Shown in pieces: positions 1-19,129 of a stretch of 64,000 nt of DNA. A program made the translations under genes and the position numbers. The DNA comes from a phage. Under the pieces are notes generated by a model that saw nothing but the letters and a program-made list of their open reading frames with translations, was not told the DNA's origin and ran no database searches. Where the stretch lies: the sequence record PQ724392.1. One strand, written 5' to 3'. Position 1 is the stretch's first letter. The number at the start of each line of letters is the position of its first letter.

Positions 1-479
1 GCCGTCCTGATATCTCGTTGGTTCCAGAATACAACCGGCTCCAGGCCATAGGTATTCAATTCACGCTCGGGAATACCCTCATTGCGCTGTAGGTCACGGA
101 TAAGGTCAACAAACAACGGGAAGTCAAAAGACATTCCACGACACCACATAAGGCTTTCATATTTGTTAATTCCATTACCATTCAGATAGTCAATCGCCTG
201 TTGGATACCAGTCAAAGTATCAACATCTTGCGCAGAAGGAGCCAAGTTAACACGGGCTTCTGCTGATTGCTTTTTCCACCAACCCATGGTTGTTGTATCG
301 AACAGACGCTTACCTTTTTGGTATTCAAGGCTAAACTTGATACGTTTGCCGCGATTAACCAGGGTTTCGAATGATTCCACAATAGCAGGGTCAGATTCGA
401 ATGTAATCAGAGCCAGGTCAATAACGGCTCCCTTCGAGCCGTTTCCTAGAGTTTCAAAGTCAATAATAGCATCAATCAT
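1..479 (-). CDS. dexA: exonuclease A (DexA), N-terminal part; gene runs off the window start
   Basis: Minus-strand frame starting at ATG 479-477 and open to position 1; N-terminus MIDAIIDFETLGNGSKGAVIDLALI with DnaQ-type DFET motif, matches remembered T4 DexA; lies next to dda as in T4. Confidence 0.75.
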   Translation of the reverse strand, partial: MIDAIIDFETLGNGSKGAVIDLALITFESDPAIVESFETLVNRGKRIKFSLEYQKGKRLFDTTTMGWWKKQSAEARVNLAPSAQDVDTLTGIQQAIDYLNGNGINKYESLMWCRGMSFDFPLFVDLIRDLQRNEGIPERELNTYGLEPVVFWNQRDIRT

Positions 480-556
480 CGCACATCTCTTTTAATTTTT
501 GAATTTCACCAGCAACCATCGCACATCTCTTTTAATTTCTGAATTTCACCAGCAAC
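477..556. repeat. 40-bp tandem duplication, 2 copies, 1 mismatch
   Basis: Copy 1 477-516 and copy 2 517-556 (catcgcacatctcttttaattt[t/c]tgaatttcaccagcaac) read directly; spans dexA start codon and 3' end of upstream ORF. Confidence 0.9.
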
Positions 557-787
557 ATAGTCGGAGATAAAAATCCCTGGCTCTTCATTGTTAAAATATT
601 CAATCGCGGCCATACGTTTCCGAATAAGATTCAGTTCCAGTAAAACATAATTACCCTGCACGACGATAGTCGGATTATCTTCGAAAAATTCAACCGCGTC
701 CTGAATACCATAGATAAGATTATCTAAATCTTCTTTATGTACTTTATACATAATATGCGTCGTACCTCGCTCGTGTGATTCCAACAT
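506..787 (-). CDS. hypothetical protein
   Basis: ORF track; start probably internal Met near 751 because 787 would overlap dda; C-terminal codons lie inside the tandem duplication. Confidence 0.4.
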   Translation of the reverse strand: MLESHERGTTHIMYKVHKEDLDNLIYGIQDAVEFFEDNPTIVVQGNYVLLELNLIRKRMAAIEYFNNEEPGIFISDYVAGEIQKLKEMCDGCW

Positions 788-2072
788 AAGCCAACTGGCT
801 CGCTAATGAAGCTTCGGCCATATGGATGCATGGAGTATAGATGAATGCTTTGTCCACTGAAACGCCTTGGGCCTTGTGGATTGTACTGACCGGAAGAGCA
901 CGAACTTTCAAGAAGGTCCTGCGCGCTTTCCAGAAGTCTTTCCACTCTGGACGTTTACCAGCGGCTTTCATCTGTTTGTATGTGTCAGCAACTTTCGCCA
1001 GATATGCCTGGAATTTTGGTTGCTGGTCTTCTGGTAAAACTTTAATGCGGTCAACCTGATATTCTTCATCTTCATCAATTGACTCAACTTCCAGGTCCCA
1101 GTAATTAATCACTAACTGGTGCGATTCGCCTTTACAACGGAGAATGGTGGAAGTGTATTTACAATCCTTGATACGAACCAACTGACCATTATTAAAAATG
1201 GTTTCGCTGAATTTCTTACCTTCAAATTCCAGCTCTTTCATGTGCGGCTCTTGCATAACCAGGACTTCATACGGTAAAAATGCTTTATCCGTTTCATATA
1301 GCTTGCGACGAATAATATTGTTCAGTTTTTCAACTGATTTATTCGTGTATGCATACATCCTGTTTTCCATCAACATATCAGCATCTTTTACAATACTGAA
1401 ATAGTTTACCATGAAATCCTTTAAAGCAGTTTGTGAGGTGAAACCTTGCACACCATGACCTTCATACATACAGTCACGGAACCAACCCCCATTACGAATT
1501 TCTGTCGCCACTTCAATGATAGGAGCATTACTTCGCATAACCTCAGTCAGATGAATCTGTTTGAACTTAGGATGCGTAAAGAATGGACTTATCTTTTGTT
1601 GTGTACTTCCTGGGTCAACCGGCTGCAGCTGGTGCATATCACCAATCCCAAGAATAGTACACCATTCAGGAACAGAGTTAAGAATAATCTTAAACAGAGA
1701 CCCGTCATACATACTTGCTTCATCGCAAACCAGAACATTACATTTTGACATGTCAGGCATTTCGCGCTGTTCAAAAACGTTTTGGTCTTCATATGTGGTC
1801 GGGTTAATCTTCAAGATACTATGGATTGTATTCGCTGTTTGACCAGACAATTTAGATAAAACTTTTTTCGCCTGGTGAGTTGGTGCAGCGAGCACAATTC
1901 CCATAACTCCATTACGCACTAAGTGGTCAATGACAAATTTTGTCAGAGTGGTCTTACCTGTGCCAGCTGGACCATTCAGAGTGATACATTCCCCTGAACG
2001 CCGCTGAATAGCTTCAGTGATATAATCAAAAGCTTCTTTTTGTCCTGTGTTCAAGTCTTCAAATTTAATCAT
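744..2072 (-). CDS. dda: Dda DNA helicase (SF1)
   Basis: 442 aa; Walker A GPAGTGKTT; near full-length match to remembered T4 Dda including C-terminal YV; ATG confirmed at 2072. Confidence 0.9.
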   Translation of the reverse strand: MIKFEDLNTGQKEAFDYITEAIQRRSGECITLNGPAGTGKTTLTKFVIDHLVRNGVMGIVLAAPTHQAKKVLSKLSGQTANTIHSILKINPTTYEDQNVFEQREMPDMSKCNVLVCDEASMYDGSLFKIILNSVPEWCTILGIGDMHQLQPVDPGSTQQKISPFFTHPKFKQIHLTEVMRSNAPIIEVATEIRNGGWFRDCMYEGHGVQGFTSQTALKDFMVNYFSIVKDADMLMENRMYAYTNKSVEKLNNIIRRKLYETDKAFLPYEVLVMQEPHMKELEFEGKKFSETIFNNGQLVRIKDCKYTSTILRCKGESHQLVINYWDLEVESIDEDEEYQVDRIKVLPEDQQPKFQAYLAKVADTYKQMKAAGKRPEWKDFWKARRTFLKVRALPVSTIHKAQGVSVDKAFIYTPCIHMAEASLASQLAYVGITRARYDAYYV

Positions 2073-2368
2073 GCCAATTTTACTCGCTTAACATATAAAG
2101 TATCTAAAATTAATTTCAATTCTCGTGCGTGTTCTTCAGTAGGAAAAACAGTTTTTGTTTCACGCTTATCAAACCACCACTTCCTGGGAATATACCGTGT
2201 TTCAATACGTCCCATGCGTAAATAGCGGTTTGTAGTATATGAATAGTTGGCAAGTTCATAATCTGCACCCGCTTTTGTGGCGTATAAGGTAACCTTTCCA
2301 TCATACTCCAATGGGTGTTCAAAACCATCTTTATCTTTATGGACCAGCACATATGCGTAGTACATCAC
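2069..2368 (-). CDS. hypothetical protein
   Basis: 99-aa ORF whose stop overlaps dda start; no motif recognised. Confidence 0.4.
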   Translation of the reverse strand: MMYYAYVLVHKDKDGFEHPLEYDGKVTLYATKAGADYELANYSYTTNRYLRMGRIETRYIPRKWWFDKRETKTVFPTEEHARELKLILDTLYVKRVKLA

Positions 2369-2369
2369 A

Positions 2370-3113
2370 TTAACCTCTAATCAGTTTAAAAATTGACGCG
2401 TTCAAAGGCAGACCACGTTTCAGTTTAAGGCGGTCAATGAATGACAACTTATCTAAACGCTCCAGACCTTGAATAATTTTATCATACATATCGTAACGCG
2501 TTTCAGCGTCAGATGATTTCATTTTCAGACGCCAGTCAGGACCACCCATAACCATTTTCAGCCCACGTTGACTAGTTCCGATGGAAGCCATTTGTCCATG
2601 GATACGAGCCTTGACTGCAATCACAGAAGGGGTAGTATCTTTAGCGCCACTTTTATAAAGCTCTTTTAAATGTTTTTGACGCTTCTTGATTCCACGTTCA
2701 GTATCTTTAATATTTTTAACAATTTTGCGAATTTTATAATAGTCAGCAGGAGTTACTTTAAAACTATTGGGCATCTTAGAACCGCCATTAATACGCACCG
2801 CCAAACGAGTCTGTGCACGTTTAAGTTCATCAAGAGATAAATCAGCACGTAAACCGTTGTACTTAGTTTTGACAGGGATAACATTGCCTTCAATATAACC
2901 TATATCATTGTTAAAGCGTTCAAAGGAAACTTTATCTTGAGTTGAATTTTCATCAAAACGTTCACCAGAATACGCACAGAATTCCTGTTTCAAAAGATTG
3001 GCGATATACTTACTAGACAGATTGAAATCCTTGTTACGACGTTTTGCAGACGTTTTGGTATGCTCGCGACGTTTGTAAACTTTTAATTCAAACTCTTCTT
3101 TTGACATATTCAT
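2370..3113 (-). CDS. HNH-family homing endonuclease-like protein
   Basis: 247 aa; CAYSGERF ... FERFNNDIGYIEGNV resembles HNH nuclease core; basic DNA-binding-like C-terminus; inserted between mod-like genes and dda. Confidence 0.5.
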   Translation of the reverse strand: MNMSKEEFELKVYKRREHTKTSAKRRNKDFNLSSKYIANLLKQEFCAYSGERFDENSTQDKVSFERFNNDIGYIEGNVIPVKTKYNGLRADLSLDELKRAQTRLAVRINGGSKMPNSFKVTPADYYKIRKIVKNIKDTERGIKKRQKHLKELYKSGAKDTTPSVIAVKARIHGQMASIGTSQRGLKMVMGGPDWRLKMKSSDAETRYDMYDKIIQGLERLDKLSFIDRLKLKRGLPLNASIFKLIRG

Positions 3114-3248
3114 GATATTTTTCTCATCTTACGGACGATTGAATAACTCAGTACGGAATCATTATATACTATTCATCTTTTATGTACACTACTTTTTCAC
3201 CTTTAACGCTTTTATTTTTACTGTGTATAATGGTTCTAAGGTCTTTGG

Positions 3249-3863
3249 TTAGTTCAAAACAGTTAAATGCCAAACAGTATACAGGTTATTCAATGGGTGT
3301 GTTTCAATCAAGTCTACGCGGAGCGTAGTCCCAGCGGGAAACATAAACTCATCTTCATCATTAACCAGGTGCAAGTTTGACTTCCTGGTTGCTTCTGGAT
3401 ATGCACCATTGAACTCTTCAGGAGGAGCACCGCAAATCATTTTGAAGATTGCTTCCTGATAGTTATACGCATATGGTGCATTGTTTATACAGAAAATGTT
3501 CCTTGTGCCATAGAAACTGTATGATGCAAAATTTCTTGCAACCTGCCAGTCCCTGGAAAAACTCATTACACGATTGAATTCAATTGTTGCGCCAACATAT
3601 CTTAAATCTTCCAGGTATTCCATGGTTTTCTTTGATATACCACGGAACAATGCTGCCGGCGGCGCAGTATTCAGATTGTTGCGGATAATCCTGGACAAGT
3701 CTTCTTGAATCAGGTCGGGTTTATTTTCCATACACTGCCAGAGTACTGATTGCTCATTATCTGTATAAAGAGCATCAATCTCCGCTTGACATTGGTTACG
3801 AAAAGACTCACTAGAAGCGGCAGTGTCAATAATTCCATTCAAAACGTCATCAGTGTACAGCAT
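3249..3863 (-). CDS. ADP-ribosyltransferase, ModA/ModB-like
   Basis: R-S-E pattern (LFRGIS, SFS, EDEF); paralog of next gene; start moved to ATG 3863 because the promoter/leader repeat lies inside the longer ORF-track frame. Confidence 0.6.
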   Translation of the reverse strand: MLYTDDVLNGIIDTAASSESFRNQCQAEIDALYTDNEQSVLWQCMENKPDLIQEDLSRIIRNNLNTAPPAALFRGISKKTMEYLEDLRYVGATIEFNRVMSFSRDWQVARNFASYSFYGTRNIFCINNAPYAYNYQEAIFKMICGAPPEEFNGAYPEATRKSNLHLVNDEDEFMFPAGTTLRVDLIETHPLNNLYTVWHLTVLN

Positions 3864-3925
3864 TTTATTATCCTCATCAGTAGTTGATAGGAACATCTTA
3901 ACGTGTCTTATTGCTCTTGTACACA
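3864..3925 (-). promoter_or_regulatory. early promoter cassette (-35 GTGTAC, N18, -10 TAAGAT, conserved leader)
   Basis: Gene-sense reads GTGTAC-N18-TAAGAT then leader CCTATCAACTACTGATGAGGA before ATG; member of repeated cassette family. Confidence 0.45.
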
Positions 3926-4468
3926 GTCAAGAACATAATAATCACCAACAAATCCAGCATCAACTACCACGAATTTCTGGTCAACTGGAACAAACCATTC
4001 AAGCTCAGAATCAATCATGTCCATGTATTCTTCGCGCCTTAATGTAGCTGCCCGGACGGAACCAGAAGCTGTATTGAAGAATTCCAGTGGAACGTCAAGC
4101 GCGATTTTGCGCATCGCATCATGGTAACAAAAAGCTTTGGTCTGATTCAATCTGACGATAGTCCTTGTCACATATTCCATTGCAGCAAAATCCCTGGCAA
4201 TACCATAGTCTTCTGTAAAGGAGGTTACCCGTCCAAATTCAAAAGGTTGCATTGATTCTTTTGCTTCATCTAACAAATCAATCTCTTGCTGGGTTACTCC
4301 GCGCCACAAGACTGTATCGGGTATAGACAACCTTGACTTGATGATTGAGTTGACATTTGAATGCAAGGTCTTATCAACCTTTGATGTGCGGCATTCAAAT
4401 AATGAAGCTATCTCCATTTCACTAAATTTTAACTGGTTGGGTTCGGTATCAGATTTGATGATGTTCAT
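3908..4468 (-). CDS. ADP-ribosyltransferase, ModA/ModB-like
   Basis: 186 aa; R-S-E pattern (LWRGVT, SFT, ELEW); paralogous to 3249..3863. Confidence 0.6.
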   Translation of the reverse strand: MNIIKSDTEPNQLKFSEMEIASLFECRTSKVDKTLHSNVNSIIKSRLSIPDTVLWRGVTQQEIDLLDEAKESMQPFEFGRVTSFTEDYGIARDFAAMEYVTRTIVRLNQTKAFCYHDAMRKIALDVPLEFFNTASGSVRAATLRREEYMDMIDSELEWFVPVDQKFVVVDAGFVGDYYVLDCVQEQ

Positions 4469-4524
4469 AATGGTCTCTCTGTTGTAAGAAAGACCATTAT
4501 GTCATTAGGAGGGGAGTAAGTAAA

Positions 4525-4794
4525 CTACTTAAACACTCCAAGTGGAACGCCAAAGACTGCAATGTCTACGGCCATACCAATCGGAGATTGGTATGATGGA
4601 GATTGATATGATGAGTAAGAACTTTTCGATTTTATCGGGGTTTCGACTTTAATTGTCTCGGATTCAGTCTTAAGCCTTTGTAAACGATTAATTTTTTGTT
4701 GCTCGATTTCCTTATGAGCATGTTTACGGTCGATATCCAGCGCCGATGTGGGAATATTTGTTAACCAGTTCATTGTTTCACCCATGGTGCCCAT
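4525..4794 (-). CDS. hypothetical protein with Ser/Tyr-rich tail
   Basis: 89-aa ORF; KSSYSSYQSPSYQSP low-complexity segment. Confidence 0.3.
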   Translation of the reverse strand: MGTMGETMNWLTNIPTSALDIDRKHAHKEIEQQKINRLQRLKTESETIKVETPIKSKSSYSSYQSPSYQSPIGMAVDIAVFGVPLGVFK

Positions 4795-4948
4795 GGAGGT
4801 GGGTCGTCGTAATATGAGGCCAGGTCGCGTAGAACTTCCATTGGGAGGCTAAAACCGTGCTTCTGTATAATCGCATCAAGTTCGTCAACTAGGTCCACAC
4901 GGGCTTCCGTAGGAGCTTTAGGCTCTTCAAAAAGTTCAAATAAATCCA

Positions 4949-5431
4949 TTAGTAACCACCGATAGGGCCGTAACCATACATACGAGCTCGGACTTTAGTA
5001 TCGTGCATAGCTTCTTCTGTTAAAGTAAAGCGCAGACCAATATCAAAGTGTTTCCAAATCTGACGTTCGACTTCAGCAAGGTCGTCGGTAGTGGAAATCA
5101 GATATGTGCGACCTTGAAGACGTTCAGTGGCCATTTTATCTCTATCTTTATAGAAAATGGTATCTTCGCCATAAAGGTCTGGGTGACGATAGCCTTTGAT
5201 GTGCAGAGCTTCGGAAACAGTAAACGGACACCCTTCGGCAACATTAACGTTTTTTCTATGAAATACCTTCAGCATAACGTTTTCTGGCATCGTCAAGTTC
5301 ATTAATTTTGTTTCCAATGCAGTGACCGAATCCATGCCATTGTAAACCATGATAAGACATGCGGTAGCATCGTAAGGTCGTGTTTGACCTGCCGAATCAC
5401 GGACATAGAATTCTAATTCGTATACTTTCAT
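4949..5431 (-). CDS. hypothetical protein
   Basis: 160-aa ORF co-oriented with neighbours; no motif recognised. Confidence 0.4.
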
Positions 5432-5573
5432 AATGTTTTCCTCTTACCGACTAATGGACCATCAGGAACTTTATTTTCCTTGATGTACTTTTCGTTTTCT
5501 TCCATCATTTTACTGCCAATTTTCAAAAGCAAATCCAGTGCTTCTTTTGCTCGGCGTTCAGCATCTTCTTGTG

Positions 5574-5768
5574 TCATGATTTATCTCCGTAGATATCACG
5601 CATCAGTTTAAGCGCTGCTCGTTCAGTCTTCTTTTCCTGCATGGCTTTAAGCCCGTTAACGGCCCATTCTTCGGCTTCACGTTGCATTTCTTCCTCGGCC
5701 CTGGCTACCCAGGAATCATCAATCCCTGGAGTAACCAACCAATCTTTAAGCCAACTTGTAATTCTCAT
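5574..5768 (-). CDS. hypothetical protein
   Basis: 64-aa ORF; N-terminus (SWLKDWL) resembles that of next ORF. Confidence 0.3.
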
Positions 5769-6122
5769 TTAATCACACGAGCTGGAAGACGAATCACAGC
5801 TTCCCGAATCATAGGAGGAATAAGACGAATCACCGGTCCACGAACTAACTGCGGCGGCGGTGACCACAATCGAAGTAGTATCGATACTGCTTCGCGCTTG
5901 GGCTTGGGCTTGGGCTCTTTGTTCTTGCAGTCGAGTTAAACGTTTTTGTAGGTCTTCTTCTGACATTGTAGAATATAGGTCTTTTGATTTCGATTTGACC
6001 ACTTCTTCCATCATGCCGTCACCCATGTAAACATATTCTCTTAGCTTAACATCCGGCAGGCTAACCGGAACCACACCTTCACCAGGTTTAGTCTTGAATA
6101 AATTCTTGAGCCAACTAATCAT
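5769..6122 (-). CDS. hypothetical protein with Ser-rich C-terminal tail
   Basis: 117-aa ORF ending DSSYSSYDSGSCDSSSSSCD. Confidence 0.35.
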   Translation of the reverse strand: MISWLKNLFKTKPGEGVVPVSLPDVKLREYVYMGDGMMEEVVKSKSKDLYSTMSEEDLQKRLTRLQEQRAQAQAQARSSIDTTSIVVTAAAVSSWTGDSSYSSYDSGSCDSSSSSCD

Positions 6123-6316
6123 AGGAAACCTCGTTTAAATTCAACTTGACCATCATCATAACGGATTTCAATATTGAATTCTAAAGAGTCATCGTCATGC
6201 ATCATGAATGAATGTACGATAACTTCATCAAACACACCCAGACCATACTTAAAATGGACATCATGAGCAATAATTTCATCTAAAGCTTTGTTTGGTTTAA
6301 TCCAACGGTTTAACAT
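6119..6316 (-). CDS. hypothetical protein
   Basis: 65-aa ORF, stop overlaps next start. Confidence 0.35.
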   Translation of the reverse strand: MLNRWIKPNKALDEIIAHDVHFKYGLGVFDEVIVHSFMMHDDDSLEFNIEIRYDDGQVEFKRGFL

Positions 6317-6392
6317 AGTATTCTCCTCTGTAATTGAAATAATTATACCGCTTCTATTAAAAGCAAAAAGGGAACCCGAAGGTTCCCTATAA

Positions 6393-6626
6393 TTAAACTA
6401 CTGGGGTAGGCGTAAACATCGCCGCGTTCTTAGTTCGCCAATCAGCTGCACTAGACGCTACGGTGACATAAGCGGCCTTTTCGGAAGGAAAAGTCTGATA
6501 GTGTGCATTCGCAATACGATGCTCATTTGAATAGATTTCAAACGGAACAGATACTTCAACACCTTTAACTTCTTTACCTTCACCAGCTGGATGCGTAAAG
6601 GTTTTGATATTAACGAAACCACCCAT
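6393..6626 (-). CDS. soc: small outer capsid protein Soc
   Basis: 77 aa; VNIKTF ... AHYQTFPSEKAAY matches remembered T4 Soc; TATAAATA late promoter upstream. Confidence 0.8.
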   Translation of the reverse strand: MGGFVNIKTFTHPAGEGKEVKGVEVSVPFEIYSNEHRIANAHYQTFPSEKAAYVTVASSAADWRTKNAAMFTPTPVV

Positions 6627-6657
6627 AATTAACTCCTTTGTTGTTTAATTACGGGTG

Positions 6658-6665
6658 TATTTATA
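6658..6665 (-). promoter_or_regulatory. late promoter -10 element TATAAATA
   Basis: Exact TATAAATA on gene-sense strand about 30 nt upstream of soc ATG. Confidence 0.5.
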
Positions 6666-6667
6666 AC

Positions 6668-7186
6668 TTAATAACCCCGGTCCTGACGAGCAAAGTTCTC
6701 AGCGTTTTTCAGGTAATACAATTTAAAGATTTCTTCTGCAGTCAGTCCAAGGCCATGGAACATGTTCAGAACAAAGTGCAGGATATCAATCATCTCAAAT
6801 TTAATTTCGAGCTGGTCTTCGGGAGACAACTCATCAATACGACGATTACGGAATTCAGCATGTTGGACTTTCCATGGTTTCCATACACTAGATGCAGCTT
6901 TCTCGCCATTAGACATACCACCGAGAGAAGTCAGAAGTTCACGGAATTCGTCGTCGACATAATCTTTCTGGTTACGAAGCCATGCAACAACATCACCTGC
7001 AGTAGTCAATTCATCTGGATGTGAGTTATATTCTGGTTTTTCAGTAGCCAGACGAACTTGCAATGATTTCTGCATATCAAGCATAATCTGCAGCGGGTCA
7101 GTACCTTTTGTAATCGCATTGTCATAAGCTTCTTCAGCTTTATCAACACCAGCAATCAGTTGGGAACACTCGTTAAAATGAGCCAT
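6668..7186 (-). CDS. 56: dCTP pyrophosphatase gp56 (MazG-like)
   Basis: Start set at ATG 7186 (MAHFNEC...); matches remembered T4 gp56 through the C-terminal KNAENFARQDRGY. Confidence 0.75.
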   Translation of the reverse strand: MAHFNECSQLIAGVDKAEEAYDNAITKGTDPLQIMLDMQKSLQVRLATEKPEYNSHPDELTTAGDVVAWLRNQKDYVDDEFRELLTSLGGMSNGEKAASSVWKPWKVQHAEFRNRRIDELSPEDQLEIKFEMIDILHFVLNMFHGLGLTAEEIFKLYYLKNAENFARQDRGY

Positions 7187-7251
7187 TATATTTTTCCTTA
7201 TCAATTCATGTTATTTTGTATGTTAATTATATCATATTGGGTTGAAGCATA

Positions 7252-7469
7252 AATACACGGAAGGAGGATATATGCTCAAACTATCTAGTCTAATTCAAGC
7301 CATCAAAGGCAGTCGTAAGCGAACGATTCTGGTCCTTTCGATACTCTGTTTAGTTCTACTCTGGAACTTCGTTGTTGCCCCTGTTGCATTGACACATGGT
7401 GTTATATTACCAGTCATTGCACTCGAATCGGTTGTAGATGTTTCACTGGCATTAATCGGCCTTATATAG
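7252..7469 (+). CDS. small hydrophobic protein, plus-strand
   Basis: ATG 7252 preceded by AAGGAGGA; hydrophobic 72-aa product; followed by hairpin with T-tract; CATAAATA upstream. Confidence 0.45.
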
Positions 7470-7529
7470 GTGGAACTATGTGAACATTATTCTATCAGAT
7501 TTGGAAATTAACCAGTAAGAAAGACAAGA

Positions 7530-7563
7530 AACATCATGGGCTAAAAAGTCCATGATGTTTTTC
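7530..7563. terminator. bidirectional stem-loop terminator
   Basis: 10-bp stem aacatcatgg/ccatgatgtt with T-rich flanks on both strands, between convergent plus ORF and gene 61. Confidence 0.5.
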
Positions 7564-7587
7564 TGTGGAACTTACCGGAATCCCTTC

Positions 7588-8616
7588 CTAAACTTTTGCG
7601 TACTTCGAAAGTCGCATTCTCGCCATCAACCCTTGAGCAACGTTATCGGCCATATATGATTCGATTTGTTCAGGGGTTGCGCCCTCCGATTTAACCATCT
7701 CATTTATGTCTTTCGTATGCCATGGTGCATTGTCCCAGAACATAACGGCTTCACCCGCTTCAACGAGCTTCTTCATACGTTTAATCGTATCCGGATGTCT
7801 TGGCTCGTTGTCCATTACCCATACTCGGGTTTCAGCATAAGGAACGGCTTCCAATGCTAATGTTCCACCAGTTATCGCAATGCTGTTAGGGATAAACAAA
7901 CTATCAATCGGACCTTCCATTACCCACACGCGCTTGCGCTCATCAATCTTGTCTACGCCATAGACTTTGGAAGCTTCTGGGTGAGCTTTGATTGTGATAT
8001 ATTTTTGTGGTGCATCTTTGCGAAGAGCTCGTCCTTGGAAAGATTCGATTTCTTTTTTGCCGTTGAAGATAGGAATAACCAAGCGTGGTTCATTCGTTTC
8101 ATTCTTATACGTCCCAGGATTAACGGAGTTAACTAATGCAGGCCATTTGTTTGTAAACCATAACCGGTTCCAAACATTGCTCGGAATACACCGACTTTTT
8201 ACATACTTAACTATCGGATGCGCTTCTGGTAAAGTATCGATTCTTTCGCAAAAAGCAAGCTCTTCAATAACCGGAGTTTTTTCTTGTTCTTTCGGAGCTT
8301 CTGCAACTTCATTACGTTGTCGACCGAAGGCGTTTTCCTTGTACTTCTCAACCATATATTCCCGGTGCAAATCCGGCTCAAACTCTTTTATGTATTTGCT
8401 TATATGCGTGGAGTAGTCACAGTTAAAACATTTCACGTAAACCGCACCATCAGATGGATTGGTATACGCCCAGAATCGAGCCTTGTGTGAATCTTTCTGG
8501 GAGTCACCACAAACCTTACAACGACAGTTTGCCTTAAATGTGCTCCCGGTGACTTCTCTGTAACGTGGTTGATACGATAAAGCTTTGACTGCAAATTCTC
8601 TATCAATATATGACAT
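7588..8616 (-). CDS. 61: DNA primase gp61
   Basis: 342 aa (T4 gp61 size); zinc-ribbon CRCKVCGD...CFNCDY; position between 56 and 41. Confidence 0.85.
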   Translation of the reverse strand: MSYIDREFAVKALSYQPRYREVTGSTFKANCRCKVCGDSQKDSHKARFWAYTNPSDGAVYVKCFNCDYSTHISKYIKEFEPDLHREYMVEKYKENAFGRQRNEVAEAPKEQEKTPVIEELAFCERIDTLPEAHPIVKYVKSRCIPSNVWNRLWFTNKWPALVNSVNPGTYKNETNEPRLVIPIFNGKKEIESFQGRALRKDAPQKYITIKAHPEASKVYGVDKIDERKRVWVMEGPIDSLFIPNSIAITGGTLALEAVPYAETRVWVMDNEPRHPDTIKRMKKLVEAGEAVMFWDNAPWHTKDINEMVKSEGATPEQIESYMADNVAQGLMARMRLSKYAKV

Positions 8617-8646
8617 AGTTTCCTCATTTCAATGGCCTCGGAGGAC

Positions 8647-8814
8647 CATTATACTGTAGGTTTATCGTCTTTATTCTTACGCTTTTTTGATGGGATTTGT
8701 TCAGGGCCTTTATTGACAACTGCCCCGGAAGTGGTACCTGTTGCGATATTAGTTGGGTTTCCACCTGCATCACCGGCAACCATATCTTCATTGATAAAAT
8801 CTTTGAATGTTTTC
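8647..8814 (-). CDS. small Gly-rich protein with CTS-like N-terminus
   Basis: 55-aa frame translated by hand: MKTFKDFINEDMVAGDAGGNP...; below ORF-track size cut-off. Confidence 0.3.
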
Positions 8815-8835
8815 ATAACACCCCCTTTCCGCTAT

Positions 8836-9027
8836 TTATACAATGAAGATAGCTTTATTGCCATTTGCATCAGTCACTTCATAGGTGTCTTCATGATACA
8901 ACGGAATAATCCAGGTAACACCATCATCAGCGATAACATGGATTGCTTCTTGGTCTTGCGACACGATTTCATATTCTTCAAAAATCTGGAAGACCGAAAT
9001 CTTAGAGCCCGTACACATTGCAGTCAT
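8836..9027 (-). CDS. hypothetical protein
   Basis: 63-aa ORF co-oriented. Confidence 0.35.
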   Translation of the reverse strand: MTAMCTGSKISVFQIFEEYEIVSQDQEAIHVIADDGVTWIIPLYHEDTYEVTDANGNKAIFIV

Positions 9028-9028
9028 A

Positions 9029-9388
9029 TTAACCTCGCTTCATGAAGGCATTAAAAATCTGGTCATCAATATCAGTAGGCAGTTCTTGAGCTTTAACCCA
9101 AGCCCCTTCCAGAATGTCATTTGCTTCAGTAGATATCATGACCCCAATTTCAGGGTTTCCGGTTATCCATGCTGCACAATCGCGTACATTCTTTTTATCA
9201 AATGGATAGCCACGAGTATCTTCATAAGGTCCACTCATTACCATAAATGAGCGAGCCTTTATAATAACATCATCTTTAACGATAATATAACCAATCGCCT
9301 GATTAAACCGAGGCTCACGAAATTCATAACGGGCATTACCATTATTATTGCTCACCAGTTCAAAATTCAGAAAATTATAATAACTCAT
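9029..9388 (-). CDS. hypothetical protein
   Basis: 119-aa ORF; C-terminus DDQIFNAFMKRG shared with next ORF. Confidence 0.4.
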   Translation of the reverse strand: MSYYNFLNFELVSNNNGNARYEFREPRFNQAIGYIIVKDDVIIKARSFMVMSGPYEDTRGYPFDKKNVRDCAAWITGNPEIGVMISTEANDILEGAWVKAQELPTDIDDQIFNAFMKRG

Positions 9389-9389
9389 A

Positions 9390-9830
9390 TTAATCTCGCT
9401 TCATGAAGGCATTAAAAATTTGGTCGTCAACTGAATATACAGGGGTTTCCAGAAGTTTCAAAAGACTGTTTTTAATGTACTTACCCGGGATACCCATATT
9501 AACAATACTGTCATTCAATTCATTATCAGGGTTGATGTCTTTAAATTCAAACCCATCAAATTCAACCTTGTCAGGAATACCATCAGCGAAAAAATAAACC
9601 AATTGGTGCATTGTATTGCGCGAAAATAATTTAGACTTGACCGCAATAAGTTCTTGCCAATGGTTTAATTCTTTGTTAAGAAGTTTATGAGCAAACGTAA
9701 TTCTATTATCACTATCAACAAGAAAATAACCCAGGTATTGAATGGGGTCGTCGCTCCAAAACATCCTGTATGCTTGTGCATTTTGATTTTTACAACGAAG
9801 TTTTTTGATAACTAAATTTCTGTTAATCAT
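9390..9830 (-). CDS. hypothetical protein
   Basis: Start moved to internal Met (MINRNL...) to avoid overlap with sp-like gene; C-terminus DDQIFNAFMKRD. Confidence 0.4.
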   Translation of the reverse strand: MINRNLVIKKLRCKNQNAQAYRMFWSDDPIQYLGYFLVDSDNRITFAHKLLNKELNHWQELIAVKSKLFSRNTMHQLVYFFADGIPDKVEFDGFEFKDINPDNELNDSIVNMGIPGKYIKNSLLKLLETPVYSVDDQIFNAFMKRD

Positions 9831-9831
9831 T

Positions 9832-10125
9832 TTATTCACCTGTAACCCATTGAACAATTTTGCTATTGTCAAATGAAGCATCGCAATACAGAACATAGTT
9901 ATACTGCATAACGCCACCAGAAGTCAATTGGTCAGATACTTCTTTAACCATATCAGGGCGGTCACGTTTAGTTATGTTCATGATATCAGCATAAATCTGG
10001 TGTTCAACATCAGTCTGGTCAGCAGTCATAGACCACTCACAAAGGTCTTTATCAAGTCCAGCGGTGACAGGTGCTGTGCCACAAGATGCTACGGCAAAAA
10101 TTGCTGCGATAATTAACTTTTTCAT
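9832..10125 (-). CDS. sp: Spackle-like secreted protein
   Basis: 97 aa (T4 Sp size) with N-terminal signal peptide and VASC lipobox-like motif; position between 61 and 41. Confidence 0.45.
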   Translation of the reverse strand: MKKLIIAAIFAVASCGTAPVTAGLDKDLCEWSMTADQTDVEHQIYADIMNITKRDRPDMVKEVSDQLTSGGVMQYNYVLYCDASFDNSKIVQWVTGE

Positions 10126-10184
10126 AATGTTCTCCTCAGTAGTTGATAAGGATAATATACTGCATTATTCCCTTATTGTACACT
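10126..10184 (-). promoter_or_regulatory. early promoter cassette (-35 GTGTAC, -10 TATATT, conserved leader)
   Basis: GTGTAC-N18-TATATT then ATCCTTATCAACTACTGAGGAGAA before ATG. Confidence 0.45.
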
Positions 10185-10525
10185 TATTTTTCACCTTCAA
10201 CTGAAAAACCGGTCAAGTTGTAATATTCAGCACGTGCAATATGAAGAGCTGCTTCAATATCAGTAAGGCAGATTTCTTCATTTAACAGTTGCGCTTCAAC
10301 GGTCAAAATCAGATTACGCAATGCGGTACCCTTACGCATGTCTACTTTATGAATTAGCTTGTCATCAACAAAAGCTTCAACCAGCGCATTATAGTTATCA
10401 GCAGTCTTCTGGACATACCAGTGAATACCTGCGGGGTGGAACATGCTAGAACGTTCAAAAGATGGTACACCAACAGCACTCACTTTGATTGTTACTTTTA
10501 CGCGGTCTTCTGGATTAAAATCCAT
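10184..10525 (-). CDS. Dmd-like domain protein with C-terminal extension
   Basis: 113 aa; shares NALVEAFVDD block with adjacent Dmd-like ORF. Confidence 0.4.
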   Translation of the reverse strand: MDFNPEDRVKVTIKVSAVGVPSFERSSMFHPAGIHWYVQKTADNYNALVEAFVDDKLIHKVDMRKGTALRNLILTVEAQLLNEEICLTDIEAALHIARAEYYNLTGFSVEGEK

Positions 10526-10738
10526 TTAGATTTCCTCAGATAAGTGGATGCGATAATCATATTCAAAAACTTTATTGTCATTAACAAAGGCTTTCACCAG
10601 CGCATTATTCACTTCCGCATACTGCACTGTAACCCATTCAATCATATTTTGGTCACTAACATCCAACATGGTTTCTTTGGTAAACATATTACCATTTTCA
10701 AACCAACCAATAAATACTACGTTCTCTAATTTATACAT
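10526..10738 (-). CDS. dmd: Dmd-like antitoxin (discriminator of mRNA degradation)
   Basis: 70 aa; VVFIGWFENGNMFTKE ... YAEVNNALVKAFVND resembles remembered T4 Dmd; position next to gene 41. Confidence 0.5.
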   Translation of the reverse strand: MYKLENVVFIGWFENGNMFTKETMLDVSDQNMIEWVTVQYAEVNNALVKAFVNDNKVFEYDYRIHLSEEI

Positions 10739-11056
10739 TTAGATTTCCTCGCAGAAGGCCCAGGCAGCGTGATAAACTGTTGCGCCTTTAGTATCATTTA
10801 AACAAACCACGTCAACCGGTGCAATCACACGATAAAGACGGGGTTCTCCTCCATATGAGCGAGCTGCTCTTCCTGCATAGATACGCGCCAAACCAATATC
10901 TTCAGTAAAAAACACACGCCCTAAATTTTTCTTACGTCCAACTTCTGACAGAACACCAGTTGCATCAGGAGGACAAAGCATATTTTGGATTCCAGCATTA
11001 GAGCTTGACCCATGATAATAAACTTTGTATTCTGCCTTGCAATCAATGGTTTTCAT
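10739..11056 (-). CDS. hypothetical protein (HGS motif)
   Basis: 105-aa ORF with YYHGSSS motif; function unknown. Confidence 0.4.
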   Translation of the reverse strand: MKTIDCKAEYKVYYHGSSSNAGIQNMLCPPDATGVLSEVGRKKNLGRVFFTEDIGLARIYAGRAARSYGGEPRLYRVIAPVDVVCLNDTKGATVYHAAWAFCEEI

Positions 11057-11095
11057 TTTATTCTCCAGTAGTTGATAGGGTCATTATAACATAAG
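11057..11095 (-). promoter_or_regulatory. early promoter (-10 TATAAT, conserved leader)
   Basis: CTTACA-N17-TATAAT then GACCCTATCAACTACTGGAGAATAAA before ATG. Confidence 0.45.
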
Positions 11096-11120
11096 AAAAA
11101 GGGGCTGTAAGCCCCTTTTA
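11096..11120 (-). terminator. stem-loop terminator after gene 41
   Basis: GGGGCTTACAGCCCC hairpin followed by TTTTT on gene-sense strand. Confidence 0.5.
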
Positions 11121-11127
11121 AAATATT

Positions 11128-12567
11128 TTAAAATTTCATTTGAGCAGCAAGGTCGTCCAGGTCGCTCCTGTTGACCCTGGTTTGTCGATTCATTTCAGCC
11201 TGGCGATTCATCTCACCGGTGGCTTCTTTAACCGTAGGACCTTGTTTAGGAGCTGAATCATCATCAACCTCATACCAGCGCTGATTACCTTTCTTAACAC
11301 CCATCTTGAATTTATTATAGTAGTTCTTATCACCATAACGAGACTTAAGCTGTTTGATTAACTGCAGCCCCATTTGAGCGAATTCTTCGGTCTCAACAAC
11401 ACCCAACATAAAGTCAGCTGTATGAGCAATACCAAAGGATTCTGCGATATCAGCCATATCAATCTCAGCTGCAACGTTCGCGCCCCTGGTTGTCTGCGCT
11501 GCAGTCCACAGGACCACATTTTTCTCGACTGCCAGACCACGAAGTTCTTCTGCAACCATCTTAATCAGACCGTAACTATTTTCGGTAAACGTTTTCAGTC
11601 TTGAGCTCGCACAGATTGCCAGGTAGTCAACAATAATCACATCCGGCACAAACCCTTGCTTCAGCTTGTACTCGTTCAGTAATGCACGGAAGGTGTCCGC
11701 ATGAGCACCGCCAGTTGGATATTGTTTTATTTTCAGAGTCCCAAGAGTCCCGGAAGCACGCCATTTTTCCATCTTAGCTTTATATTCTGCCCATGATATA
11801 TGACCTTCATCAATATCATCCAGAGACACATCCAGCAAGTTGGCATCAATACGTTTGGCACATACTTCTTCGGCCATTTCCATGCTTATATAAAGCACGT
11901 TATGACCAGTCTGAAGATAGTCAGCGGCTAACGAACAAAGTCCTAGAGATTTCCCGACGTTGGTCCCAGCCAGTAAAACGTTTTCTGTACCATACTCAAC
12001 TCCACCCTTCGTGATTTTATTCAGGATGTTAATGCGGAACGGAACCTTTTTCGATTTGTTCAGATAAGTCTGGAATCGAGCTTCGTAATCGTTTAACCAG
12101 TCATGGCCCAGTGCAGAGTCAAAACAGATGGACAATGCATCACGCATGATGTCAGGGATAGCACCGATATCCGGGATTCGTTTATCACGTTTATCTTTCG
12201 GAAGTTCGGCATTACTCTGGATTTCGATAATCCTGGATGTGGCATTGAACATCGCAGACTTCTGTACATACTTCTCGGTTTCTCTGACCAACCATTCCTG
12301 GTCTTCTGGAGTATCGGCCAGGACTCCTAAGAGTTTCTTTGTGCCTTCGTATTCAACTTCAGAAAGGTCAGAACTGTCGAGCGCGATATCAAGTGCAGTC
12401 TTAGTTGGCACCGCCTGATATTCTTTTACGTGTTCGTTAATCGTATTAAAAAGGGTCTTCGCTGGACCCTTTTCAAAATATGTGCTATTCAGATATGGCC
12501 AGACTTTAACAAAATATTCCTTGTTAAAGAGTAGCTGGGATAAAATAGTTTCTACCACTTCCACCAC
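11128..12567 (-). CDS. 41: replicative DNA helicase gp41 (DnaB-like)
   Basis: 479 aa; Walker A GTNVGKS; T4 synteny between 61 and uvsX. Confidence 0.9.
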   Translation of the reverse strand: MVEVVETILSQLLFNKEYFVKVWPYLNSTYFEKGPAKTLFNTINEHVKEYQAVPTKTALDIALDSSDLSEVEYEGTKKLLGVLADTPEDQEWLVRETEKYVQKSAMFNATSRIIEIQSNAELPKDKRDKRIPDIGAIPDIMRDALSICFDSALGHDWLNDYEARFQTYLNKSKKVPFRINILNKITKGGVEYGTENVLLAGTNVGKSLGLCSLAADYLQTGHNVLYISMEMAEEVCAKRIDANLLDVSLDDIDEGHISWAEYKAKMEKWRASGTLGTLKIKQYPTGGAHADTFRALLNEYKLKQGFVPDVIIVDYLAICASSRLKTFTENSYGLIKMVAEELRGLAVEKNVVLWTAAQTTRGANVAAEIDMADIAESFGIAHTADFMLGVVETEEFAQMGLQLIKQLKSRYGDKNYYNKFKMGVKKGNQRWYEVDDDSAPKQGPTVKEATGEMNRQAEMNRQTRVNRSDLDDLAAQMKF

Positions 12568-12896
12568 CTCTTTTTCATTTTAATCTTATCAATTTCATCT
12601 TGTATTTGCATTGTAACACACTTTTCTACATGCACTGCAAGCTCCGCTTTGCGGTCTTCAGAAGGGGTGCCGAAATCAACTGAAACTTTTCCCGATGGTT
12701 CAATTTTAATTCCGGTTACGTACACAATGTGATTGGACCCATCAGGGAGTGATAACAGAATTTCCTGCCGTACAGTTCCCATGGATTGCCGGATAATCTC
12801 CAAACTTTTTTCGTAGTAAGGTACAGAAGGAGCCTTAGCTCCCTCCGCATCTTTCTCGAAATTATCTAAATCAGATAAATCGATATCATTCATCAA
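12552..12896 (-). CDS. 40: gp40-like protein
   Basis: 114-aa ORF between uvsX and 41, the position of T4 gene 40. Confidence 0.45.
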   Translation of the reverse strand: MMNDIDLSDLDNFEKDAEGAKAPSVPYYEKSLEIIRQSMGTVRQEILLSLPDGSNHIVYVTGIKIEPSGKVSVDFGTPSEDRKAELAVHVEKCVTMQIQDEIDKIKMKKRWWKW

Positions 12897-14064
12897 GGTC
12901 TTCCATCATATCTAAATCGTTTTCGATATCTGCCGCAGATGGTTTTGCCTTACCTTCAGGGGCAGAGTATTTTTCAACCTTGGAGGCAATAAGCGCATCA
13001 ACTTCGGCGTCAACAACAGCATTGCTATCGATTGCACCCAGCTGGTAATGGCGTTTGATTGCATCACGGAAAGGTTCGTGCTTAAACAATGGGCCCCAGA
13101 ATTCGGTGCAGTTAGTATCTTTTGCACGCCATGATTTTTCTTCGCGGACCATTTCACCGGTCTCAACATCAAGATATTCACGGTTATACCAACCAACTTT
13201 CGGTTTCACCACAAATCCGATTTCCATTGCCATATCAAGCAGGCCAGAATACGGGTCAATACCCCCATCGAATTTTACATCAATGAAGAATTTACTTTTC
13301 TCTTTGACCATACGAGATTTTTCGGCGTTCAGAACAAATTGGAAACCTTCAAGTTCTTTACCAGTTTCTTTAATCTGGCGTTTGCCGATAATGAATACGG
13401 TGTCCGCAGAATACATAACACCTGTACCACCGGTCATAACGGTTTTGCTATACATCTCAATCGTCTCGATTGTATGGTTAACCGCGACACAAGGAATATC
13501 CTTGATACTAAAATATGGGGTAACAATACGGAACAGAGATTTCAGGGATTTAGCACGAGTCATATCGCCAACGACTTTTTCGTTCATCGCATCTTCTGTT
13601 TCTTTTTTCGACGCCATGTTACCGATTGAGTCAATAAAGATAATGACTTTTTCACCGCGCTCAATTGCTTCAAGCTGGTTAACCATATCAACTTTCAATT
13701 GTTCAACCGACTGGATTGGTGTGTGGATAACACGCTCCGGGTCTACTTTCATTGCACGCAGATAGGCTTCTGTGATACCAAATTCTGAATCATAGAACAA
13801 ACAGATTGCTTCGGGGTATTTGTTCATATATGCAGAGACCATCGTTAAACCCATATTGGATTTAAAGTGTTTTGACGGACCAGCAAAAATAGTCAAACCT
13901 GACTGCATACCACCATCTAGTGCACCGCTGATTGCAATGTTCAGCATCGGGATTTTTGTACGAACTACATCTTTATCATTAAAAAACTTGGACTTAGTAA
14001 GAGTCGCAGTCATTTTGGATGTAGAAGCTTTAATCAAACGGGATTTCAAATCTGCAATAGACAT
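12886..14064 (-). CDS. uvsX: UvsX recombinase (RecA-like)
   Basis: 392 aa; Walker A GPSKHFKS; T4 synteny. Confidence 0.9.
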   Translation of the reverse strand: MSIADLKSRLIKASTSKMTATLTKSKFFNDKDVVRTKIPMLNIAISGALDGGMQSGLTIFAGPSKHFKSNMGLTMVSAYMNKYPEAICLFYDSEFGITEAYLRAMKVDPERVIHTPIQSVEQLKVDMVNQLEAIERGEKVIIFIDSIGNMASKKETEDAMNEKVVGDMTRAKSLKSLFRIVTPYFSIKDIPCVAVNHTIETIEMYSKTVMTGGTGVMYSADTVFIIGKRQIKETGKELEGFQFVLNAEKSRMVKEKSKFFIDVKFDGGIDPYSGLLDMAMEIGFVVKPKVGWYNREYLDVETGEMVREEKSWRAKDTNCTEFWGPLFKHEPFRDAIKRHYQLGAIDSNAVVDAEVDALIASKVEKYSAPEGKAKPSAADIENDLDMMEDLDE

Positions 14065-14143
14065 TCATTTTTTCCATAGGCACCATTATATTTTTCTCAC
14101 AGGTTTAAGATAGGATAATTATATCACTGTATTTTTAGAGCAA

Positions 14144-14272
14144 TTAACGATTGAATCCACGATTAATTGCACGTTCAACAATCTTCCGGGTCTGACGTTT
14201 GTCCCACCAGTACATAAAACCAATACCAAATGCAGACAACAACCACAGACTAATCAATAGCATACCAATCAT
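14144..14272 (-). CDS. small single-TM peptide
   Basis: 42-aa frame translated by hand (MIGMLLISLWLLSAFGIGFMYWW...); below ORF-track cut-off. Confidence 0.3.
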   Translation of the reverse strand: MIGMLLISLWLLSAFGIGFMYWWDKRQTRKIVERAINRGFNR

Positions 14273-14298
14273 AATATTTTTCTCGCAGTTCAGAGTAA

Positions 14299-14406
14299 TT
14301 TAGTAAACGTTTCCACGTTTCCAGTTTTCTTCAGCCAAATGCTTATTACGCTTTTCTAATAGCAGCAAACCAATTACTGTTCCAACAATCAGAAGTAATA
14401 ATAGCA
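14299..14406 (-). CDS. small single-TM peptide
   Basis: 35-aa frame (MLLLLLIVGTVIGLLLLEKRNKH...) starting right after the lipoprotein stop. Confidence 0.3.
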
Positions 14407-14910
14407 TCAGTTAATACCTTGGCGTGCTTTCTCTTTAGCTACACATTTATTAATATAGCTCAGACGGTTTTGAGCAGAACGCTGATACATATCGCGATAC
14501 TCATTGGCTTTTGGAGAACCCGTCTCCGCTGCCTGATAAGCTTCTGCACGCATGATGTTTATCTGCATATTGATATATGACATGCAGACCTGTGAAATCT
14601 GGTTAACAGTATCCAGGTCATTTTGGCGCTTGGTTTCTGCTTCCAGTTTAGCAATGATTTCGTCATGCTTCGCAGCTTGTTCGCGTTTGTACTCAATTTC
14701 ACGTTGAGCATATTTCGCGCAGTTATTTCCACATTGATTGTTGTCGCGTTTGTAGATAAGTCCAGTACCACCTTTGAAATCAAAGGAACCATTATGCACC
14801 TGACGGTCTGCAGCAATTCGCGCTTTACCAATCTCATTGGCATTAACAACATCACCCTGGTAAGCACAACCAGATAGCAGCATAACAGCTGCGATAGCTA
14901 ACTTTTTCAT
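14407..14910 (-). CDS. putative lipoprotein
   Basis: Start at MKKLAIAAVMLLSGCAY (signal peptide plus LSGC lipobox); sits where T4 has beta-gt/42. Confidence 0.5.
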   Translation of the reverse strand: MKKLAIAAVMLLSGCAYQGDVVNANEIGKARIAADRQVHNGSFDFKGGTGLIYKRDNNQCGNNCAKYAQREIEYKREQAAKHDEIIAKLEAETKRQNDLDTVNQISQVCMSYINMQINIMRAEAYQAAETGSPKANEYRDMYQRSAQNRLSYINKCVAKEKARQGIN

Positions 14911-15060
14911 TGTATTTTCCTCAATTAAAACATTCATAACGGGCTTGGAGTCCCAAAAATATCCAACCCAAAATTAAAGTTGGAATCATATGCGGAGTCA
15001 TTATTGCCCAATAGATTGACATACTAAAAAATGCAATCAGTACAATAATTGTAATTATCT

Positions 15061-15303
15061 TCATTTGGTTTCCTTGATGATAATTAACTGTGCGTTTGAT
15101 TTACGTTCAGCAACGAGTGCCCAAATAAACGCAATAAACCACCCAACCATTGTCCAACCTAACAGAAGGTTAACAAAGAAGATTCCGCAATTACTTTTGG
15201 TTCCACGCAGTAGCGCGATAATCCACGGTAGAAAATAGGTCAGTGCAGCCAGGAAGAAAGAACCAGCACCAAGAACAACAGTACCTGCAATTAATGTTTC
15301 CAT
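15061..15303 (-). CDS. imm: Imm-like small membrane protein
   Basis: 80 aa, two hydrophobic helices, immediately downstream-adjacent to gene 43 as T4 imm. Confidence 0.5.
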   Translation of the reverse strand: METLIAGTVVLGAGSFFLAALTYFLPWIIALLRGTKSNCGIFFVNLLLGWTMVGWFIAFIWALVAERKSNAQLIIIKETK

Positions 15304-15375
15304 TTTAATATCCTTAAGTTAATCATCAGTAATTGATGGAGTAATCATACGGCAATCCTTTGCCGTTGTAAACAC

Positions 15376-18090: not shown

Positions 18091-18151
18091 TTGGTTTCCT
18101 TTATAGTCGAGTGATTGACTTTTGTTTTATGACTTGACGCTATTATACTAC

Positions 18152-18173
18152 AAAAGGGACCGAAGTCCCTTTG
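18152..18173 (-). terminator. stem-loop (GGGAC-CGAA-GTCCC) between regA and 43
   Basis: Hairpin read directly; followed on gene-sense by TATAAT and the gene 43 leader. Confidence 0.4.
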
Positions 18174-18180
18174 CTTTAAA

Positions 18181-18549
18181 TTAATTACCAATTGTATATT
18201 TGGCCACGAGCTTCCAGTCGTCTTTTTGTTTAAAGGAGATAACACGGAAGTTGTTTGTTACTGCGAACAATTCATTATGCTCTTCTTCTTTGATAGTAAT
18301 TAAGCCCCAGTCTTCGAGCAGTTGAGCGATGGAATCACGGCGCTGATAGTCTTCACCATCAATATCCACCTGGCGGCCATCCATGCGCAGCATTTCTTTG
18401 AAGTGAACAATATAGTAACGGCCTTGCTTTTGGAGGATGTGGCAGCTCTGGTACAGTACACGGTCTTTATTATTTGCGATGCCCATACGGGTCAGAGTTT
18501 CTTTAACTTTCAGGAAGTCTTCAGGTTGCTTTAATGTAATTTCAATCAT
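18181..18549 (-). CDS. regA: translational repressor RegA
   Basis: 122 aa (T4 RegA size); position directly downstream of 62. Confidence 0.8.
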   Translation of the reverse strand: MIEITLKQPEDFLKVKETLTRMGIANNKDRVLYQSCHILQKQGRYYIVHFKEMLRMDGRQVDIDGEDYQRRDSIAQLLEDWGLITIKEEEHNELFAVTNNFRVISFKQKDDWKLVAKYTIGN

Positions 18550-18550
18550 T

Positions 18551-19129
18551 TTACCATTCCAATATTTGTTTTTTAATTTCTTTTTGTTCTTTCACATTAC
18601 TGGTAACGGTCTTTAAGAATTCATCCGTTACCAGACCTTTTGTCTTTTTCAAAACATCTTTAAGACTACCTTTGACTTTCAATGTTTCCATATACATCAA
18701 AGCATCATCTGCATTAATTGTATAATATTTCATTAAAAGCTTTAACACAAGCTGGACGTTGACCGTATCTGGCTCAGCCTTCGCCCATTTACCATAACGC
18801 TTGCCTTGCGGAACCGCATGCAGCAAATAATTATAATGCTGTTGGTCTGTTAACCCGGAACCAATTAAGTTCATCACGTTCACCTGCATAATGCAATCGA
18901 CATGTTGGCTCAATGCGTTTTCCAACCAGAATTTATTGTAGTTTTCCGATTGAATCAGGTTCCGTGGTTTTTTACTAACGGTTATGTCATTAAGAATCGC
19001 GAACAATTCATTTTCTGCTTTCTCTTTGTATGAATCGGACAATTCCTGAATTTTGTTAAAGTCGCGTGATTTCCACACAACCTCATGTTCGTTTAATTGA
19101 ACGTCATCATCAAAGAGACTTACAGCCAT
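18551..19129 (-). CDS. 62: clamp loader small subunit gp62
   Basis: 192 aa; overlaps end of 44 as in T4. Confidence 0.75.
   Translation of the reverse strand: MAVSLFDDDVQLNEHEVVWKSRDFNKIQELSDSYKEKAENELFAILNDITVSKKPRNLIQSENYNKFWLENALSQHVDCIMQVNVMNLIGSGLTDQQHYNYLLHAVPQGKRYGKWAKAEPDTVNVQLVLKLLMKYYTINADDALMYMETLKVKGSLKDVLKKTKGLVTDEFLKTVTSNVKEQKEIKKQILEW

Follow-up and report, generated by a model that had tools for sequence, protein, structure and literature searches.

The window, a 64,000-nucleotide stretch of DNA from a T4-like E. coli phage (record PQ724392.1), belongs to Gaprivervirus, the VR7/SP18-like relatives of T4. The locus analyzed here carries three genes, all encoded on the minus strand: dda comes first, followed by a small DexA.2-like ORF and then dexA, the latter two being early genes. 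The dda gene (744-2072) encodes a DNA helicase of 442 aa with matches to the Dda SH3 domain (PF18343, E = 1.9e-33) and to PHROG 325 (E = 8.6e-167). The 5' part of dexA, 159 codons (1-479), begins at the ATG at 479-477 (MIDAIIDFETLGNG...), is truncated by the window start and matches both PF16473 (E = 3.3e-15) and PHROG 255, an exonuclease family (E = 3.9e-47); the 3'-5' exonuclease domain match and a position after dda that is kept in 26 relatives identify its product as exonuclease A. Over positions 1-20000 the best matches of the window are pEC-M719-6WT.2, ECML-359 and EAWsc9, which are 97-98% identical in several pieces. These matches indicate a distinct, mosaic member of Gaprivervirus.

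Between dda and dexA lies the DexA.2-like ORF of 81 aa (506-751), whose C terminus reads SDYVAGEIQKLKEMCDGCW and whose stop codon is at 508-506. PHROG 5263 matches its residues 1-78 (E = 2.9e-32), a significant profile match across the protein that places it in the DexA.2/Y00H-G family, and the corresponding ORF of VR7, VR20 and ECML-359 is annotated as similar to T4 DexA.2. Our local copy of Pfam-A gave no match to the ORF (506-751) at E <= 0.01, whereas a precomputed listing assigns an identical protein to PF26837 (Phage_T4_Y00H_G), a discrepancy that looks like a difference between library versions. The ORF finder began the small ORF at an ATG at 787, inside dda (787-506, 93 aa); the ATG at 751 gives 81 aa and overlaps the dda stop codon by 8 nt (ATGTATAA). 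GenBank is inconsistent on this start, which is given either as the ATG inside dda, yielding 91/93 aa (UPEC07, UPEC01, YenP8 and CJ20; loci L008, L010, L021 and L022), or as the ATG overlapping the dda stop, yielding 79/81 aa.

The boundary between the small ORF and dexA is occupied by two 40-bp copies arranged head to tail in the same orientation (477-516 and 517-556), which are identical at 39 of 40 positions and differ solely at 499 (T) versus 539 (C). The initial annotation had described two such adjacent copies with a single mismatch, duplicating the dexA ATG, its ribosome-binding region and the last codons of the upstream ORF, and the sequence bears out each of these points. TRF reports the repeat at 473-556 with a period of 40, 2.1 copies, 95% matches and a score of 154; the next-best tandem repeat in the 64-kb window scores 55, so that the 40-bp repeat is by far the strongest. 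A scan of periods from 12 to 300, independent of TRF, again placed this pair first (39/40 at start 477), and the chance expectation for such a 40-bp pair at the base composition of the window is about 4e-17 per window. Read on the minus strand, each unit is GTTGCTGGTGAAATTCA(G/A)AAATTAAAAGAGATGTGCGATG, the variable position being that at 499, which in gene orientation gives CAA in the downstream copy and CAG in the upstream copy. A second, smaller tandem repeat lies at 4583-4613 (15 bp, 2.1 copies, 14/15 identical), in frame within an 89-aa minus-strand ORF (4794-4525), where it encodes SYQSP-SYQSP.

The duplicated unit straddles the gene boundary: it takes in the final 13 codons of the small ORF as well as the dexA ATG with about 37 nt of preceding sequence. 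The conserved C terminus of the DexA.2-like ORF, VAGEIQKLKEMCD, is encoded by the upstream copy (517-556, minus strand), which also holds a decoy dexA ribosome-binding region and a decoy ATG (519-517). The downstream copy (477-516, minus strand) contains the stop codon of the DexA.2-like ORF, a 26-nt spacer (505-480) with a Shine-Dalgarno-like stretch (AAGAG), and the dexA ATG proper. The unit length is not a multiple of three (40 = 3 x 13 + 1), so that the small ORF continues into the second copy in a shifted frame, which gives Gly-Cys-Trp and then the stop codon at 508-506. The new tail and its TGA (517-506) replace the last Asp of the ORF, lengthening it from 79 to 81 aa, and the stop now lies 26 nt before the dexA ATG, a change in stop-to-start spacing from -8 to +26. 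The duplication also creates a mini-ORF of 15 codons (472-519, minus strand; MVAGEIQKLKEMCDD) that starts at the decoy ATG and whose TGA overlaps the genuine dexA ATG by 8 nt as ATGATTGA, re-forming the ancestral overlap. On the dexA side, the ATG and the 37 nt upstream of it are preserved apart from one base. We considered and rejected an N-terminally extended DexA: the decoy ATG lies in a different frame from dexA, whose own frame contains a TAA 5 codons upstream of the ATG, so that there is no in-frame upstream start.

The comparison with related genomes that the initial annotation had proposed was carried out by megablast of positions 300-800 of the window against a phage collection. This returned 34 records, all from Gaprivervirus or from similar but unclassified phages, which correspond to 28 distinct genomes after removal of RefSeq duplicates. 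The two-copy state (a 501-nt span) is present in 10 of the 28, namely TH22, TH55, UPEC07, ECML-359, TH41, MN01, TH57, TH54, UPEC01 and VR20, which come from the USA, Uganda, Bangladesh and Lithuania, and a single copy (461 nt) is present in the other 18; counting the window, two copies occur in 11 of 29 genomes. The region was read base by base in 24-26 of the 28 genomes, the one-copy state of VR25 and VR26 being taken from their IMG/VR copies. The one-copy relatives are otherwise collinear with the two-copy genomes at this locus. All 10 two-copy GenBank genomes have the same junction, GCGATG followed by GTTGCTGG, which recurs in three ENA metagenome assemblies and two Logan run assemblies. 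The exact 81-aa protein is present in 31 blocks of the assembly collection, including ENA metagenome and Logan run assemblies; since the metagenomic haplotypes were picked out by an exact match to this protein (...GCW), they form a biased sample, uninformative on selection for the tail. A scan of IMG/VR for the junction pattern found only VR20 itself, and scans with the copy pattern added one further one-copy contig in the JGI metagenomes, recovered VR20, VR25 and VR26 in IMG/VR and gave no match in the GTDB genomes. No three-copy form was seen among the GenBank relatives, IMG/VR, the JGI metagenomes, GTDB or the ENA and Logan assemblies. The repeat is present unremarked in public records; literature searches on dexA.2 (swamped by medical 'DEXA' papers), on tandem duplication in Gaprivervirus and on duplication in overlapping genes did not turn up any account of it.

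Two further features of the region vary among these genomes. The ORF after dexA, equivalent to VR7 gp013 and situated just beyond the window start (locus coordinates about 1172-1477, loci L002-L027), is either 258 nt or 306 nt long; both lengths occur among one-copy genomes, and every annotated two-copy genome has the shorter one. In the 140,978-bp record of phage DCP80 (PQ671644.1, locus L018), tail sheath and terminase genes adjoin the dexA region, unlike in any relative, and this record is probably a rearranged or misjoined assembly.

The two-copy sequences fall into at least five haplotypes whose copies differ from each other at 0-3 sites. In type I the upstream copy has CAG and the downstream copy CAA; it is found in the window and in eight GenBank records whose 80 nt are identical to those of the window, as well as in both Logan run assemblies. 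Type II, with TGC upstream and TGT downstream, is found in VR20 and UPEC01, and the ENA metagenome assemblies contribute three others, which have the same junction and whose copies differ from each other at 0, 2 and 3 sites. The two-copy state occurs on several diverged flanking haplotypes, with lineages that differ by 4-7% in their flanks, and UPEC01 and L039 differ from the remaining two-copy sequences at two positions upstream of the repeat, 4 and 7 nt away from it. These observations bear on two suggestions of the initial annotation. An assembly artefact, for example a retained overlap of contig ends, has next to no probability as an account of the variant: the junction recurs across many laboratories, assemblers and sample types, the copies are non-identical, a 40-bp unit is shorter than typical reads and is hence spanned directly, and the genes on either side are called as intact. 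For this particular isolate, two copies are supported by its assembly and by the identical 80 nt of the eight other records. We regard as equally far-fetched a recent slippage or recombination event private to the genome of the window; it could draw on the single-base divergence of the two copies, but the same difference is shared by the other type I sequences, and the several diverged flanks and the number of haplotypes speak against a recent date.

One copy is the ancestral state, a polarity that follows from four observations and is firmer than the origin and collapse of the duplication discussed below, which we infer from sequence comparison. In the one-copy form the small ORF is 79 aa long, ends ...KEMCDD before its stop codon and overlaps the dexA ATG by 8 nt. 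The 77 positions of the PHROG 5263 profile extend no further than residue 78 of the ORF, so that the Gly-Cys-Trp tail is an add-on. The deepest Gaprivervirus clade in neighbor-joining (NJ) trees of the flanks (VR7, TH15 and TH40) has one copy. Other homologues of the small ORF were found only in Karamvirus-like phages, at about 33% identity, and in Karamvirus CC31 dda and dexA flank an 80-aa homologue that ends ...FVAGNIREFKEMT (...KEMT) before its stop codon and runs onto dexA through an ATGA overlap.

We examined the unit boundaries for traces of the duplication mechanism. The unit begins and ends with G, is preceded by T and followed by A, and therefore cannot be rotated, which defines its breakpoints uniquely. 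There is no microhomology at these breakpoints, only an imperfect GTTG/ATTG nearby, and the direct repeat that slipped-strand or microhomology-mediated duplication requires is thus absent. Slippage on the nearby TTG would have given GATGATTG at the junction, which does not occur in any of the 16 two-copy sequences read. Since all 16 have exactly the same blunt breakpoints in this context, we suggest a single origin of the duplication. Yet NJ trees built from 1.9 kb of each flank require at least five (upstream) and at least six (downstream) changes of state, and in them the two-copy state is shown to be non-monophyletic. Recurrent independent duplications at a mutational hotspot would account for these changes and for the two-copy state on several flanking haplotypes, including those of UPEC01 and L039 with their two different upstream bases. 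A hotspot would nevertheless have had to reproduce one blunt junction every time, and the trees conflict with each other (TH41, for instance, is placed with UPEC01 by the upstream flank and with ECML-359 by the downstream flank), which points to pervasive recombination; we therefore rate recurrent origin, as against one event spread by recombination, as very unlikely.

Comparison of close relatives bears on how the second copy may be lost. The one-copy genomes EAWsc9, YenP8 and pEC-M719 are identical or nearly identical to the two-copy genomes TH22, TH55 and UPEC07 at variable sites over about 400 nt on each side of the repeat. EAWsc9 and YenP8 carry CAG, and pEC-M719 is the only one-copy genome with CAA, which is otherwise specific to the downstream copy. 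These CAA and CAG forms are the two outcomes that would be expected of collapse, with the crossover falling on either side of the single nucleotide difference, and we infer that the duplication has collapsed repeatedly. Singer et al. (1982) reportedly found that recombination in T4 drops steeply below about 50 bp of homology, and a 40-bp repeat that is only moderately unstable would fit this dependence. The most economical history would then be a single duplication without microhomology, in which the ribosome-binding region and ATG of dexA were copied along with the final 13 codons of the small ORF, followed by spread of the two-copy variant among co-infecting phages via homologous recombination and by its repeated loss through recombination or slippage between the two copies.

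To consider the consequences for dexA translation, we compared the locus with coupled overlapping gene pairs. A spacing of -8 with the form NTGNNTGA is one of three enriched overlap motifs (PMC12548453); according to the same review, the efficiency of coupling peaks at spacings of -4 to +3 nt, coupling persists but can fall 3- to 10-fold as the spacing rises to about +40 nt, and in one study that it cites spacing had no effect up to +25 nt. The one-copy relatives have this -8 arrangement at their DexA.2-like/dexA junction, and the overlap of dda with the DexA.2-like ORF at 744-751 has the same geometry. In the window the 81-aa ORF is instead separated from dexA by the 26-nt gap, and the overlap is provided by the mini-ORF (519-472), so that any direct coupling would be to the mini-ORF. 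The dexA start region is predicted to be equally accessible in either state, with a mean unpaired probability of 0.40-0.42 versus 0.41 for one and two copies. Predicted folds around the repeat revealed no stable mRNA structure, being no more stable than those of shuffled sequences (z about +1.5), and a scan of positions 1-2600 for promoters and terminators found nothing in the repeat, with counts at or below those of shuffles. The initial annotation had raised the possibility of altered dexA initiation, of which one part holds, since the translational context has changed from an 8-nt overlap to a 26-nt gap with a mini-ORF; the initiation site itself is intact. On these predictions the effect on DexA output is expected to be none to modest. 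The duplication is tolerated because its unit straddles the gene boundary, such that only the last residue of the small ORF changes and dexA keeps its full initiation region; its effect on the level of DexA appears small, close to neutral, and the variant is most likely harmless.

The same features could be read as adaptive. A selected regulatory variant would uncouple dexA translation from the DexA.2-like ORF or re-tune it via the mini-ORF, and would free the DexA.2 C terminus and the dexA initiation region from their shared nucleotides. The shift in spacing and the restored -8 overlap would supply the means, given that spacing affects coupling efficiency (PMC12548453), and the variant is frequent, geographically widespread and old enough for its copies to have acquired up to three differences. 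We nevertheless consider selection improbable, as closely related genomes lose the duplication without any other visible change, and the Shine-Dalgarno-like stretch and ATG of dexA are unchanged and as accessible as before. In addition, dexA is non-essential in T4, and we know of no function for T4 dexA.2. A little less credible still is a naturally segregating expression switch that alters the amount of exonuclease A, its states kept by selection as a slow reversible toggle; gain would come through recombination and loss through collapse, and the mini-ORF, opened by the decoy ATG and terminating in the old 8-nt overlap, would tune dexA together with the stop shifted 26 nt upstream.

The duplication resembles several known systems to different degrees. 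With the short tandem-duplication polymorphisms of T4-like phages it shares head-to-tail copies, presence or absence among close relatives and loss that yields the variant of either copy (CAA in pEC-M719 versus CAG in EAWsc9); it differs from them in the lack of breakpoint microhomology, in a unit that is not a multiple of three and in its persistence across lineages 4-7% apart. In the refactored phage T7.1, overlapping genes were reportedly separated deliberately by duplicating the shared segment. Here too each gene gains its own copy of the shared nucleotides, although the variant is natural and there is no sign that the separation was selected. The likeness to the 50-nt translational bypass of T4 gene 60 is superficial, consisting in a T4-family early gene with matching codons tens of nucleotides apart, where a hop of 40 nt would restore the ancestral ...KEMCDD reading. 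We rejected a bypass of this type: none of the possible take-off codons in the upstream copy is followed by a stop, the first stop in frame is reached only within the second copy, and a stable hairpin is lacking.

Taken together, these data identify the 40-bp duplication as a real and heritable presence/absence polymorphism that segregates among Gaprivervirus phages, for which one origin, recombinational spread, repeated loss and a near-neutral effect are likely. Small structural polymorphisms of this ordinary sort are of little consequence except for bookkeeping. As the repeat is genuine, assemblies that contain it should not be "corrected"; it also accounts for the two annotated lengths of the small ORF in Gaprivervirus genomes, 79 aa and 81 aa. 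As a marker, the 40-bp unit is handy for tracing recombination among these phages. It provides a small natural example of a frame-breaking duplication that is tolerated at an overlapping gene boundary and separates two overlapping genes, and, if the two states differ in DexA output, they would offer a simple natural test of the distance dependence of translational coupling.
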